Of a DNA stretch of 64,000 bases, positions 40,819-45,536 are shown piece after piece; the first letter of the stretch is position 1, and the number at the start of each line of letters is the position of its first letter. This DNA comes from Eubacteriales bacterium (lineage in GTDB: Bacteria; Bacillota; Clostridia; Oscillospirales; CAG-272). The DNA lies in contig JAZSGX010000057.1 of assembly GCA_045532975.1 (NCBI GenBank), positions 3,223 to 67,222 on the forward strand. Reading direction: 5' to 3'. The notes under the pieces are model-generated. The model saw nothing but the letters and a program-made list of their open reading frames with translations, had not been told where the DNA came from and made no database searches. A program made the position numbers and the translations under genes.

Positions 40819-40846
40819 AAAAAGGCTCGCCTCGTGCGAGCCTTTT
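40819..40846. terminator. Rho-independent terminator of trkH; left copy of the hairpin pair flanking the AT-rich island
   Basis: aaaaGGCTCGC-ctcgt-GCGAGCCtttt. Confidence 0.75.
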
Positions 40847-40880
40847 GATGTTTCTTGTTGCACTACAGAACGCGTTGTTT

Positions 40881-40909
40881 CAAAACAGGCGGAGCGTTTG
40901 CTCCGCCTG
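40881..40909 (-). terminator. Terminator ~150 nt downstream of the island lipoprotein gene
   Basis: Stem caggcggagc/gctccgcctg with loop gttt. On the minus strand it is followed by TTTTG. Confidence 0.55.
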
Positions 40910-41059
40910 CTCGCTTAATTCACTTTGAATACGGTTCTGTCGAAAATGACAAAAGCCAATCGTTAGTAAGGTCTTCTTCAAGTCCTCTTAAGACAGCGTT
41001 CAAACTTGTCTATGAAGACAAGGAATGTCTTGACCGACATCCTCTGTACCATATCTTGC

Positions 41060-41908
41060 TCATTGAATTAATAGCAAAATACGTTCAGACGCAACAACAT
41101 CATAGCCATCATAAAAATGTATACATTTTACTTTAACCGTGCATATCAAGGCGTATTCTCCATTGTCATCAATTGTTAACTCATAGTCAAAGCTTTCATA
41201 AGATACTTCATCATAGGTCTGCTTAGCAGTTGCATATTCATCATCAAGTTTCGATATAACTTGTTTTTTTATGTTTTCGCAATCAAATCCTGTTGTCATA
41301 TTTGATGACATCTGTCCAAGCATCGTAGAAGAGAAGCTGTATATGTATCCTGTTTCTTTAATCATTATATCGGCTCGGTCAGAACATCTAAAGCCATCTA
41401 TGTATTTTGTAAATGAAACTGTATACATTTTTCTCTCATCATCAAAGGTTGAGGTTGCTGTATATTCAGAAACATTGGTAATATTAGAAACAAATGTTCT
41501 TGCAATTTCAATGCACTCTGATTCTGTATATGTTTTGTTGTAATTGTTATTAGAAGGTTCATTTCCAAAGAAATATGTACAAAGCTTGCCTTCGTCGGAC
41601 AAGGAAAAATAACAATTGTTCTTATCTTTATATTTATGTGTTTTGTAAAATTCGGAAAAACGAATTTCTGATTCAACATAATTTCCTTCTACTTCAACAT
41701 TTCCGATTGTAATAATGATATTTTTATCCACATTAGAATCAAAAAACGCATCCTCGCTCCAAGCTTCAAACTCTAACTCGTGAGGGGCTTGTGGTATTGA
41801 GTCAGAATATCCGCATATTTTGATAGACAAATTATTGTTTCTTGAGCATCCTAATAACAGAGTAGTCAATAGTAATAGTGATATTATAATACAACTTGCT
41901 TTTTTCAT
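41060..41908 (-). CDS. Lipoprotein of unknown function (island gene 2)
   Basis: Signal peptide with lipobox LLGC (MKKASCIIISLLLLTTLLLGCS). AT-rich codon usage. The gene starts 12 nt downstream of the 1096-aa gene. Confidence 0.7.
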   Translation of the reverse strand: MKKASCIIISLLLLTTLLLGCSRNNNLSIKICGYSDSIPQAPHELEFEAWSEDAFFDSNVDKNIIITIGNVEVEGNYVESEIRFSEFYKTHKYKDKNNCYFSLSDEGKLCTYFFGNEPSNNNYNKTYTESECIEIARTFVSNITNVSEYTATSTFDDERKMYTVSFTKYIDGFRCSDRADIMIKETGYIYSFSSTMLGQMSSNMTTGFDCENIKKQVISKLDDEYATAKQTYDEVSYESFDYELTIDDNGEYALICTVKVKCIHFYDGYDVVASERILLLIQ

Positions 41909-41920
41909 GTTACTCTCCTT

Positions 41921-44900
41921 TTATTCGCTAATTCTATAGTCGCCGTTACCGCAAACAACTGCACTTCTCAACCCAGAAGCAAGACTCTGATTAATTGAAG
42001 CGTAATCGACAGACTCTTGTACTGTATGGCCTTCTATCAAATAAGAATAAAAATCTTCGGTCCATTCGTTTGCATCGTCACAGTTTATACTGTCGGAAAA
42101 GCCTACTGTAACATCTGCTCCTTGGTTTGAGACAGCAGCAGGAAGATTTCTACCTGTTGTACCATCATATGCAGTTTCGCACCCGACGAATAACGCCATA
42201 TTCAATCCATCAAACAAATCGGTGGTGGTAATGCTAACACTTCCTAATGTCATATTGTCCCATGGATGACTATATAAAGCGACCATCTCTGTTTCCTCTT
42301 CGTCGTTTAATATTATTCCCGTTGAAGCAGCGATGCTTGTATCTTCCCAAACAATCAAGTGGCCGTGGCTTCTACTTGTGAAAACACTAGAGTTTTTTAA
42401 ATCGGAAAGACAAACACTTGAATTAATGGCACCTGTTTTTAATGTAATGTTGTTGAAACCAACATTGTGCAAATCCCTTTTTACATCCGTTAAACAACTT
42501 GAATGGTCGTGACCAGAATTTGATATACCGTAGAAAATTACTTCAAATTCATCAAGTGGCTCAAGCACCCACTCATCTTTATAATCATCATCGTTGTTGT
42601 ATACACTCTGTTCAACGTTTAATCCGCTATCTATCCACAGGAATTGATCTCCTGCACTCATACACCAATCTGAGCTATATGATTCTCCAGATTTGGGTCT
42701 TATTATATAGGCTCCTGAAGATGATTTAGTTATTTTCCATTTTTTTCTACTTAAGTCTGAATCTGGCTCTTGAATTAAAGATTCTTCATCAACATTTAAA
42801 CAGCTCGATTGTACACAAATAGCCATATCGCTTTTTTCGGATATTATTTTGTAATATCCGTCTTGTATATGATCAAGCTTCCACTGCTGATATTCCTCAC
42901 CATCAAAATCCCATAATTCTAATAAGCTTCCATTCGTATTATAATTTGGTTCATCGTCATCGTCTATTTGAACATATGTTTCAGTATCTTTGTTTTTAAT
43001 AAAATATGAGCCTTCGTCTATTGCAAGTGAGGAAGTAAAATCATATGCTAATATATTGTAGTTGCTATCTTCTCCGTTATAAATCAATACATTTACCTTA
43101 AAATCTCCGCTTTGATGAAGCATTACATTGGTTTTTCCAGAAACTACGTCTGTAGAATACGTGGCGTAATATGAATATTCGTCATCAATCGTTATCATAT
43201 GAGTATTACAATCTATCATGGTTGACCATACGACAGCAGAAAATTGGCACAAATCTCCTACATAAAATTCAGACGGAAAATAAATAGTAGAGCCCCATTG
43301 TTCTACCCCTGTATACTGCTCAAACGTCCATCTCATACTATCAGTTATGGCAGATGACATTGGAGCAGTGGTTAATTCGTAGTTTACATCGGTATCTGCC
43401 ACTATCATATTCGGACTGTTATAAGGAGCAATTATGTATCCGCTGTTTCGGAGAGTTATACTGAATTTATCCTCGTCAGGTACATCTTCATCTTTGCTCG
43501 CTATTTCTTTGGTAATCACTTGCCCGTTTGAAATTGTCAATGTAAGATTGTTGTTAGTCATCAATCTAATGATATACAATCCATTTGAGCCTGATATCTT
43601 AAATAATCCCGAGCGGTCAAAGCTATTCACAGGAGATGTTGTGCCGATTATATGCTGAATATTGCTACCGGATATTGCGCTACCGTTTTCGACGGTAATA
43701 TATGATTGGCAATCTATATTCTTGATTGCATACACACCATCGGGAATTTGCTGAGAATATACCACTCTGAGATACGGAGAGTAGCCGGATTCAGAGGATT
43801 TTATTATCACAGAGTCTTGTGTCCCGGAGCTATTCTTTATAGCAACACCGTATGCGAATGCTCCGCTATAATACCAATTACTAAAAATTGTTGTAATAGG
43901 AAAGCCGACTGTTTGTAAAGCCGGTGTTGCTGAGGACACTGCTTGCTCTGAAATCTTTGTAGCAGAAATGCTTGGTCTATTGCTGTATTTTGTATTTGTA
44001 TCTATCATACCGACAACTTCGTATATTCCAATATTAAAATCAGCGTCTGCTCCATAATAGGAGATATATAACTCTGCCGAATCAATTCTTGAAATATTCA
44101 TAGGCAAACTTGGAATATATGGCTTAATCAAGGCTGTTTTTGTATCGCTTGCATACAAAGCTTCGCTTGTAGCATAACTAACATTTGGGTTTTGTGAATC
44201 AATATAGGTATCAACCCATATTGTGCCTTGAATTGTCGGGTCAATATTTACAGGAAATTCTCTGTTTTGATCATTTATCCACTCTTCATTGGCAATAACC
44301 TTTAACGTATAGCCACCCTTTGATGCTACCAAATTATAGAAAACGTCATAAGAGTATTCACCGTTACCGTCATACATATACGGCGCAGGGATTGTGTACT
44401 TTATATTTTCAGTTTTTACATCCCTTAGTAAAATGTTGCCGCCTTGGTCAAGTTCCGCAGTTAAGCCTGTTAAACTTAACTTGAATGCGTATTCGTAGCT
44501 ATCCGTTTTTGCTTTAACAATAATGTTTTCTTTGATATTATTTCCGTCTAAGATATACTCAATATCCGTATTCTCTCTAATATCATTATACACTATTGAT
44601 GACCGATTGTCAATTTGAATAGCGCTTTCAACAGAATTGAAAACTAAGCTTTGTGACCTTTTTTGAGCATTTTTTATAACAGGTGTCTGTGTGCTTGACT
44701 CTTGAAGTGTCACCTTACCTGAGCTAATAGGGGTCATAGAAACTGAGTATCCGTTTTCATTTAAGCTAAATAATTCGCTACCGTACTTAAAGGCGCTTGC
44801 AAAGCTGACTCTTGAATCCTCGGTATAATATCCTTGCTTATCGTTAACTCTTTTCAAGGTTAAGCTATTATCAATGTCCTGCCATACACCGTTTATATCT

Positions 44901-45211: not shown

Positions 45212-45360
45212 ATCGTTCTTCTCCTTTAATTAATCACGTGTTCAAAATTATGTTTGATTCAAAATGTACCATTGGAATGTACCTCCTTATCCTTTCTATA
45301 ATTGAAAAGTAAATTATATCTCAATTTCCTTCAAATTTTTCAAAAAATCATTGAAGCAAC

Positions 45361-45399
45361 AAAAAAAGCGCATAAGTCGTTTTTGCCTGACTTATGCGC
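45361..45399 (-). terminator. Rho-independent terminator/attenuator inside the leader of the 1096-aa gene
   Basis: On the minus strand: stem gcgcataagtc/gacttatgcgc with a 10-nt loop, followed by TTTTTTT. Confidence 0.6.
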
Positions 45400-45472
45400 A
45401 AATTGCAGAGTATTATATTTTTCTCGGCAACAGCTTTTTAGTTTGGGTTGTCGGGATTGTTTATCTGCCTTT

Positions 45473-45501
45473 GTTATATCATATTTTTACAGTGTTGTCA
45501 A
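45473..45501 (-). promoter_or_regulatory. Sigma-A promoter with extended -10, reading toward the island
   Basis: On the minus strand: TTGACA, a 17-nt spacer, then TGaTATAAC. Confidence 0.55.
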
Positions 45502-45506
45502 TATGC

Positions 45507-45536
45507 AAAAAAGGCTCGCTTCACGCGAGCCTTTTT
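45507..45536. terminator. Rho-independent terminator of gap; right copy of the hairpin pair flanking the island
   Basis: aaaaaaGGCTCGC-ttcac-GCGAGCCttttt. Confidence 0.75.

Follow-up and report, generated by a model that had tools for sequence, protein, structure and literature searches.

A two-gene island between trkH and gap

We analysed a 64-kb stretch of DNA (the window, to which all coordinates refer unless a locus is named) from a contig of a metagenome-assembled genome (MAG) of an Eubacteriales bacterium, and concentrated on a two-gene island that lies between trkH and gap. The two flanking core genes converge on the island. On its left is trkH (K+ uptake, 509 aa; 39273-40802, plus strand; Pfam TrkH, E=1e-60) and on its right gap (glyceraldehyde-3-phosphate dehydrogenase, 337 aa; 45555-46568, minus strand; Pfam Gp_dh_N and Gp_dh_C). 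The island encodes a Sec-secreted protein of 1096 aa (41921-45211, minus strand) and, 12 nt downstream, a lipoprotein of 282 aa (41060-41908, minus strand). It is bracketed by two hairpins that resemble bidirectional terminators, T1 (40820-40846, both strands; intrinsic-terminator-like) 3' of trkH and T4 (45509-45535, or 45508-45536 with longer arms; both strands) 3' of gap. A first-pass annotation made from the sequence alone had described a convergent trkH/gap pair around two minus-strand genes for a secreted protein and a lipoprotein, and the list of open reading frames (ORFs) and the Pfam matches agree with this arrangement. The same two sources and an NCBIfam scan also agree with its statement that the island holds no integrase or transposase; neither of these nor a tRNA gene was found at the island borders in the ORF list, in the Pfam and NCBIfam scans of the island or in an Rfam scan of 36000-50000.

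The island is compositionally foreign. The GC content of 40847-45506 is 0.362 compared with 0.426 for the window, which makes it about the lowest 4.66-kb stretch in the 64 kb; 0.4% of sliding windows were equally low, and all of these overlap it. At third codon positions, the GC content (GC3) of the lipoprotein gene is 0.259 and that of the 1096-aa gene 0.328, which is 3.7 to 5.6 standard deviations (SD) below that of the window, where 36 other long ORFs average 0.456 +/- 0.035 with a minimum of 0.352. The windowed GC and GC3 values bear out the earlier view of the island as AT-richer. The hand counts of 27-35% GC on which that view had drawn caught a real dip but were somewhat too low for the 1096-aa gene, at 0.373.

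Empty sites at a variable junction

The island was compared with 176 fetched loci (named L followed by a number); the comparison contigs are metagenome assemblies. No exact match was on record for the TrkH, the 1096-aa protein or the lipoprotein of the window, and cluster members and near relatives were used instead. Locus L085 was reached through P0242, a member of the window's 90% TrkH cluster that is identical at 505 of 509 residues. Its DNA matches the window with 98.6% identity along 9.5 kb on the left and 97.2% along 0.84 kb on the right, and we therefore assign it to the same species. In L085 the island is absent and trkH and gap are 96 nt apart. An empty site was also seen in a sister lineage, represented by three metagenome contigs (L001-L003) in which an identical Gap protein is encoded beside trkH across a 96-nt spacer. 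These alleles support the proposal of the first-pass annotation that the region is a real insertion, and one that is lineage-specific.

Each side of the empty site has its own hairpin. In L085 the stem 3' of trkH is GGATGCTC/GAGCATCC and the stem 3' of gap is GACCCGC/GCGGGTC, and the short-spacer relatives L007, L010 and L013 have two unlike hairpins each. The GGCTCGC stem that T1 and T4 share occurs in none of the empty alleles found (L085, L001-L003, L007, L010 and L013).

The wider comparison covered 83 loci, among them 19 from related species that keep trkH adjoining gap. Homologues of the island genes were absent from all 83. The first-pass annotation had asked whether relatives carry both genes at this position, and 0 of the 19 trkH-gap loci have either one. 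The spacer in these 19 loci ranges from 92 nt to 5.7 kb. Among loci L004-L032 the slot contains a second ktrB/ktrA-like K+ transporter pair (~2.1-2.4 kb), a GtrA-like gene or MBOAT-like genes; it is occupied by an MBOAT-like gene plus a 533-aa gene in L009 (5.7 kb) and by a gene for a 745-aa membrane protein in L019. Judged from these sequences, variability is a general feature of the trkH-gap junction.

Breakpoints inside the flanking genes

Alignment with L085 located the edges of the variant tract inside the core genes. In trkH, 10 mismatches fall in the last 40 nt (40763-40802), compared with 3 in the 570 nt before. Nearly all of these changes are synonymous, with one K->R replacement (PVLILFTPRTWKRT versus ...KKT), and homology is lost beyond them. 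On the gap side, the two sequences differ across the gap terminator and as far as 45561, a synonymous site in the second-to-last gap codon; 280 nt of perfect identity follow. According to BLASTN and global alignment, the tract that differs from L085 thus spans at least 40763-45561 and at most 40518-45842, the latter set by the nearest informative sites. It extends beyond T1 by 57 nt on the trkH side and beyond T4 by 25 nt on the gap side, and in both cases enters the gene; sequences across the two junctions of the island allele include ACTTGGAAAAGGACATGATTATAGATAGAAATGGAAAAAGGCTCGC and GCGAGCCTTTTTGTTATGCTTATTCTAAAATTAGATTTCAG. Because the variant tract starts in trkH and ends in gap, both GGCTCGC hairpins and both gene ends were swapped together. 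Neither the hairpins nor the trkH 3' end of the resident allele, as seen in L085, occur anywhere in the window, and they were therefore replaced, not displaced. An integrative element that brought a replacement trkH 3' end with it was rejected, as no displaced native trkH end or hairpin is present at the other border.

Comparison with L001 placed this tract within a larger one. The last ~700 nt of trkH (40096-40762) are 97-99.5% identical to L001 and gap (45555-46700) is 95-98% identical, compared with ~82% for the surrounding genes, and the same pattern holds for both the window and L085. It points to a recent recombination tract between the lineages, with the trkH-gap junction at its centre. 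The divergence linked to the island is nested in the tract shared with L001 and is found only in the window, and the island allele is therefore derived. Within gap, 7 mismatches to L085 are clustered in 100 nt (45954-46053) of an otherwise nearly identical gene, and this may be a second small recombination patch.

The first-pass annotation had left the insertion mechanism unexplained; the footprint fits homologous recombination in the flanking genes, with breakpoints inside trkH and gap. In the mechanism that we propose, a diverged relative would already have possessed a trkH-[cassette]-gap arrangement, and its DNA would have recombined with the resident chromosome by ordinary homologous recombination. 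The crossovers would have fallen within the final few hundred bases of trkH on one side and, on the other, at the 3' end of gap or just inside it. Everything between them would have been replaced, both terminators included, so that both GGCTCGC hairpins would be donor sequence. Since recombination in the flanking genes would have carried the island, no integrase would be needed. Overall, we regard the island as probably a strain-specific accessory islet in a variable slot that was acquired by homologous recombination in its flanks and that carries an effector and a putative inhibitor as cargo.

Integrase-free hotspots that spread their contents via recombination in flanking core genes have been described (PMC2617782). 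The hotspots of E. coli resemble the present locus in their variable content between fixed core genes, the lack of an integrase or tRNA, raised recombination in the flanks and breakpoints within the flanking genes (PMC2617782). The present locus differs in belonging to uncultured Oscillospiraceae-like Clostridia and in that its slot lies between two convergent terminators; two imported terminators with one stem are a feature not described for those hotspots.

A shared stem in the two bracketing hairpins

The first-pass annotation had reported that two terminator hairpins with an identical stem flank the island, and we confirmed them at 40820-40846 and 45509-45535. T1 reads AAAAGGCTCGC-ctcgt-GCGAGCCTTTT and T4 reads AAAAGGCTCGC-ttcac-GCGAGCCTTTT, or AAAAAGGCTCGC-ttcac-GCGAGCCTTTTT in its longer form. 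The 11-nt arms are identical and the loops differ at 3 of 5 positions. On either strand the two hairpins fold with -17.6 to -22.2 kcal/mol (z scores -5.4 to -6.7). The motif has exactly 2 matches in the window even when 3 mismatches are allowed, with 0 expected from 100 shuffles; it is absent from all 176 fetched loci and occurs just 4 times across the entire IMG/VR. A survey of bidirectional hairpins with 7-bp stems, covering the window plus 1.1 Mb of related loci, found no stem shared by an unrelated pair, and the identity of T1 and T4 is therefore not due to chance. A chance origin was rejected on all of these grounds (the shuffles, the 176 loci, the rarity in IMG/VR and the hairpin survey). 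A direct repeat of 41 nt with 78% identity spans T1 and T4, but an extension of the repeat beyond the hairpins was unconvincing, with 7 of 13 positions matching outside them.

Identical stems with diverged loops would be expected if an old duplication had been under selection to keep the hairpins stable, and duplication of the stem in the donor lineage is plausible. The trkH terminators of L085 and L001 likewise have a common stem and different loops. In this pair (L085 9541-9562 and L001 9105-9084) the stem is GGATGCTC/GAGCATCC in both loci and the 6-nt loop is reverse-complemented (aagcaa versus ttgctt), which looks like a hairpin-loop inversion. Elsewhere in the window, the 7-mers of T1 and T4 recur in swapped order (GCGAGCC-N9-GGCTCGC) at 60830-60852, between the convergent ORFs 59612-60841 (plus strand) and 60861-62498 (minus strand); this is a different hairpin made from the same arms.

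Copies of the cassette at other loci

The closest copy of the cassette was found in L084 (NCBI MAG GCA_052830445.1, JAZMCT010000061.1), where the effector (the 1096-aa protein) is 80% and the lipoprotein 86% identical. Its DNA is 83% identical to window 45416-41054, and 75% identical across the leader region (45503-45269). The cassette in L084 is also AT-rich (GC 0.373 and 0.325, compared with 0.423 for its other 0.5 kb). Its surroundings differ from those in the window: downstream of the lipoprotein gene comes a 75-aa C-terminal fragment of RNase J, there is no trkH or gap on the contig, and the GGCTCGC hairpin is absent from it. As L084 shares the cassette and not the hairpins, the mobile unit consists of promoter, leader, effector and lipoprotein genes (45503-41054) and excludes the hairpins. 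A second copy of the last 38 nt of the RNase J fragment, with 89% identity, is found ~110 nt further on, arranged around a short insert rich in C. The L084 contig is 5051 bp long and has an exact terminal overlap of 141 nt, the assembler's k; it may represent a 4910-bp cycle, a tandem array or an assembly loop. A second sample (L170) contains a lipoprotein gene that is 99% identical together with the adjacent non-coding stretch, and this contig stops 100 nt short of the hairpin. An origin from a plasmid or phage was rejected, the matches there being distant N-terminal DNRLRE matches (25-31%) to Bacillus and Priestia plasmids and to one S. suis phage.

The cassette has its own transcription signals. 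A consensus-like promoter on the minus strand (TTGACA 45501-45496, 17 nt, TATAAC 45478-45473) begins a leader unit (45361-45501, minus strand) that also comprises a structured leader of ~100 nt, hairpin T3 (45399-45368) and a U-run (45367-45361); a spacer of ~150 nt separates T3 and the U-run from the start codon of the 1096-aa gene. In L084 the promoter is a perfect TTGACA-17-TATAAT, and the leader unit is kept (L084 4836-5051 and 1-100) with a compensatory G-C to A-U change at the stem base. The ~100-nt leader (45462-45361) could be a small RNA or a conditional attenuator of the operon. Downstream of the lipoprotein gene, hairpin T2 (40883-40912, minus strand) has a 13-bp GC-rich stem followed by UUUU (-24.9 kcal/mol, z score -5.25) and is likely the terminator of the two-gene operon. 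T2 and T3 are two terminator-like hairpins within the island that the first-pass annotation had overlooked. An Rfam search of 36000-50000 returned no family at gathering score; two Trp_leader-like matches below threshold (E~0.5) simply reflect the two terminators.

T2 is contained in a non-coding stretch of 213 nt (40847-41059; GC 0.437). This stretch is not shared with the L084 cassette, and its portion next to the lipoprotein gene shows 97% conservation in L170. Searches with 40847-41059 matched none of the loci and no other part of the window, and a Pfam scan of three of its six frames was empty at E<=10. Nothing matched the broken reading frames that had been noted earlier at 40916-41059. 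We also rejected the idea that the stretch corresponds to the RNase J C-terminal remnant of L084.

A secreted scaffold with interchangeable C-terminal domains

The 1096-aa protein has a WapA-like N-terminus with a Sec signal peptide and a DNRLRE/CBM96 domain (residues 334-483), followed by a ricin-B lectin domain (residues ~730-845), a YKDEW junction (residues 877-881) and a predicted CHAT/caspase-like cysteine protease domain (residues ~885-1096), which we call the head. In the 120 best homologues, residues 1-885 were always aligned, and coverage falls at ~885, just after YKDEW. At least 13 unrelated C-terminal types follow this point among the 120 sequences, the most frequent being CHAT-like (45), reprolysin-like (25) and C39/C70-like (20); rarer types include M10, LCAT/PGAP1 lipase and DUF3289. 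The head-swap point is marked by a Y-(K/R)-D-E-W motif (P0001-P0120; window 41921-42601) in which D879 and W881 are invariant, and this motif may be a processing or recombination junction.

Several lines of prediction concern the head of the window protein. Of 28 members of its head type, 18 match Pfam CHAT (PF12770) and 4 match Peptidase_C25, and the profile of the head type matches PDB entry 8tl0 with E=1e-4. H79-G80 and C141 of the head-type alignment (A3), corresponding to H949, G950 and C1011, are invariant. The AlphaFold2 (AF2) model of the head has a predicted local distance difference test score (pLDDT) of 92.3, and Foldseek matched it with a probability of 1.00 to the CHAT proteases of SAVED-CHAT and Craspase, to separase and to gingipain. 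Based on these models and profiles, the head looks like a caspase-like (CHAT/clan CD) cysteine protease. It shares the predicted fold and the invariant His-Gly...Cys with the known CHAT/clan CD proteases (SAVED-CHAT 8tl0, Craspase TPR-CHAT, separase and gingipain). It would, however, be a secreted head of 210 aa on a lectin scaffold and not an intracellular defence protease activated by a signal.

The N-terminal region of the protein connects it to polymorphic toxins. Its first ~350-470 aa are common to Rhs-type proteins of ~2200 aa, and YD-type repeats were recognised by eye in ORFs beside two of these (L125 and L153). The N-terminus also matches proteins annotated as 'DNRLRE domain-containing' on Bacillus and Priestia plasmids. 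In the 1096-aa protein itself, Pfam, NCBIfam and PDB profile searches gave no match to Rhs/YD repeats. In B. subtilis, WapA-WapI pairs an Rhs/WapA-type toxin with the product of a downstream immunity gene. The protein studied here resembles Rhs/WapA toxins in its Sec signal, DNRLRE N-terminal region, conserved scaffold, C-terminal swap at a fixed junction and covarying downstream partner. It differs from them in that it has no Rhs/YD match and carries a ricin-B lectin before the junction, that the heads are proteases and lipases and not nucleases, that the partners are secreted proteins or lipoproteins, so that protection would be extracytoplasmic, and that no LysM domain or sortase context was seen. 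A DNRLRE N-terminus has been described for the WapA polymorphic toxin of S. suis (PMC12704120).

A lipoprotein partner that varies with the head

The lipoprotein has a lipobox (LLLG|C) and a borderline match to Pfam DUF4901 (YcdB/YcdC; E=4.5e-6, 27.3 bits against a cut-off of 27). Its AF2 model has a pLDDT of 86, and Foldseek returned the C-terminal domain of YpeB (E=7.5e-6), YycI and the propeptide of vibriolysin (M4). The probabilities of these fold matches are 0.95-1.0 and the template modelling (TM) scores just 0.24-0.34, the latter being low because the repeat unit matches and not the overall arrangement. Regulation of proteases by PepSY domains is known from YpeB-SleB and from M4 propeptides. 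The lipoprotein may be like the PepSY regulators (YpeB-SleB, M4 propeptides and YycI) in having tandem PepSY-like alpha/beta units, as its model and the borderline DUF4901 match suggest; it differs from them in being paired with a clan CD cysteine protease, which it would inhibit.

Across loci, the identity of the lipoprotein follows that of the head (86% with 87%, 63% with 71% and 26% with 24%, respectively). Four close CHAT-type loci have lipoprotein homologues that track the head, and five other loci have unrelated partners, giving ~9 loci. Family members with other or more distant heads have unrelated small secreted proteins, lipoproteins or membrane proteins instead. The architecture of the cargo suggests a polymorphic effector that is paired with a cognate inhibitor or immunity partner outside the cytoplasm. 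The lipoprotein would sit at the outer face of the producer's membrane, where it would inhibit or neutralise the predicted protease.

Alternative explanations

In the model of the first-pass annotation, a mobile cassette inserted into a single GGCTCGC terminator that trkH and gap once shared, and a recombinase acting in trans duplicated this terminator, as a long target-site duplication or as attL/attR. The non-random identity of the 11-nt arms, the 41-nt repeat spanning both hairpins and the end of the L084 cassette homology 4 nt from the right hairpin would fit such an event. The ancestral single terminator, however, is contradicted for this species by L085, and every empty allele found has two different hairpins, none with GGCTCGC. 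Moreover, the divergence from L085 extends past T1 into trkH and past T4 into gap, the loop differences argue against a recent crossover in the central region, and L084 has the cassette without the hairpins. Repeats identical through a crossover core together with a one-copy empty site, as attL/attR would require, were not found. We consider direct insertion at this site very unlikely. By analogy with Xer-dependent pdif modules or with Campbell-type integration at micro-homology, the identical hairpins might also be functional ends of an integrase-less cassette that can exist as a ~4.9-kb circle, at which the L084 contig hints, and would enter and leave chromosomes at terminator hairpins via host recombination, a proposal that we regard as a long shot. 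If true, terminators between convergent genes would be general docking sites for such effector cassettes in gut Clostridia. The pdif/Xer modules are similar in that a recombinase-less gene module is bracketed by two ~27-bp palindromic sites with conserved arms and a variable centre, but the sites here are GC-stem terminators with A/T runs and are not dif-like, the breakpoints lie outside the hairpins, and L084 does without them; the likeness is a resemblance only. Somewhat less remote, though still unlikely, is an event in the donor lineage in which a circular cassette carrying a piece of terminator integrated by a single Campbell-type crossover, after which the locus was passed on. This would be compatible with recombination in the flanks. 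The 4910-bp cycle that can be drawn from L084 suggests that a circular or tandem form may exist, and identical stems with diverged loops, like those of the L085 and L001 trkH terminators, fit an old duplication. Yet a tandem duplication or an assembly loop can equally yield an overlap of length k, the GGCTCGC hairpin is missing from L084, the donor sequence was not found, and a homology of 28-41 nt lies close to the minimum that RecA-dependent recombination requires. Deletion is another alternative, with the island ancestral and the empty sites of L085 and L001-L003 secondary: presence and absence alone give no direction, and loss between convergent terminators is easy. A deletion would not, however, also introduce synonymous changes into the final 40 nt of trkH or exchange the stems of both terminators. 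The nesting of the island divergence in a tract common to the window, L085 and L001 (97-99.5%), the low GC3 and the absence of the island genes from 19 of 19 related-species trkH-gap loci also count against it, and we think it very improbable. An assembly or binning artefact, in which the junctions would be those of a chimeric MAG contig, is hardly credible. The source is metagenome-assembled and AT-rich inserts flanked by repeats are prone to misjoins, but the repeat of just 27 nt is far under the assembler's k, both junctions run into homologous, diverged ends of trkH and gap that a chimera would not create, and the independent sample L170 has the 99% identical lipoprotein gene with the adjacent non-coding stretch.

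A different account of the cargo is possible, though we hold it to be doubtful: the effector may be a secreted glycan-targeted protease that serves nutrient acquisition or host/mucus interaction, with the PepSY lipoprotein as a folding or anchoring factor or as a zymogen regulator. The carbohydrate-binding modules (CBM96/DNRLRE and the CBM13-type ricin-B), the nature of the heads, which are extracellular-type hydrolases (M10, M12, lipase) and not nucleases, the abundance of the family in gut metagenomes and the tie of PepSY folds to protease regulation would all suit this account. Head swapping at a fixed motif, a co-diverging partner, an N-terminus shared with Rhs/WapA proteins, an orphan partner gene and a patchy distribution among strains are instead the signature of a conflict system.

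Acquisition of an effector-inhibitor islet through recombination in trkH and gap, which we favour, also has observations that weigh against it. The donor was not found in the GTDB representative genomes or the metagenome contig collection: a GTDB scan with TrkH gave a best identity of 87% and no island, and a metagenome scan with the effector alignment gave best matches of 34-42%. Neither the imported trkH 3' end nor a GGCTCGC hairpin is present in any sequence of the collections scanned for the donor, and the original insertion event is therefore unobserved. Strain mixtures in metagenome assemblies could blur the breakpoints. The stem shared by T1 and T4 is not accounted for by homologous recombination alone and is a small but real puzzle. 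As regards the cargo, we infer a toxin-immunity function from architecture and covariation in ~9 loci, the C-terminal domain of the window protein is by itself below the Pfam CHAT threshold, and the distant CHAT-type members L086 and L087 have unrelated downstream genes. In L171-L176, a 65% homologue of the lipoprotein occurs alone, with no effector gene. The homologue in L171 (8001-9026) is located between a GHL10 glycoside-hydrolase-like gene and a leucine-rich repeat (LRR) protein gene and has a GC content of 0.314 compared with 0.449 for the locus. A solitary homologue fits an orphan immunity gene or, equally, an independent function.

Implications

The type of islet is itself already known, as a recombination-driven hotspot. 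The footprint described here is unusually clean, with synonymous rewriting of 40 nt of trkH, both terminators swapped and a surrounding inter-lineage tract, and an integrase may be missing from the island for the simple reason that transfer between related lineages proceeds through its core-gene flanks. The stem shared by T1 and T4 bears on how the cassette first entered the trkH-gap locus. The cargo family, in turn, seems uncharacterised. It appears to be a large family of Sec-secreted proteins in gut Clostridia that join a WapA-like N-terminus and a ricin lectin to an exchangeable protease or lipase head; no Rhs repeats were detected in them, and each is paired with an extracytoplasmic partner that varies. 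If its members are interbacterial or host-directed effectors, gut microbiomes would contain in them a new source of secreted enzymes of the clan CD, papain-like and zincin kinds, together with their inhibitors.

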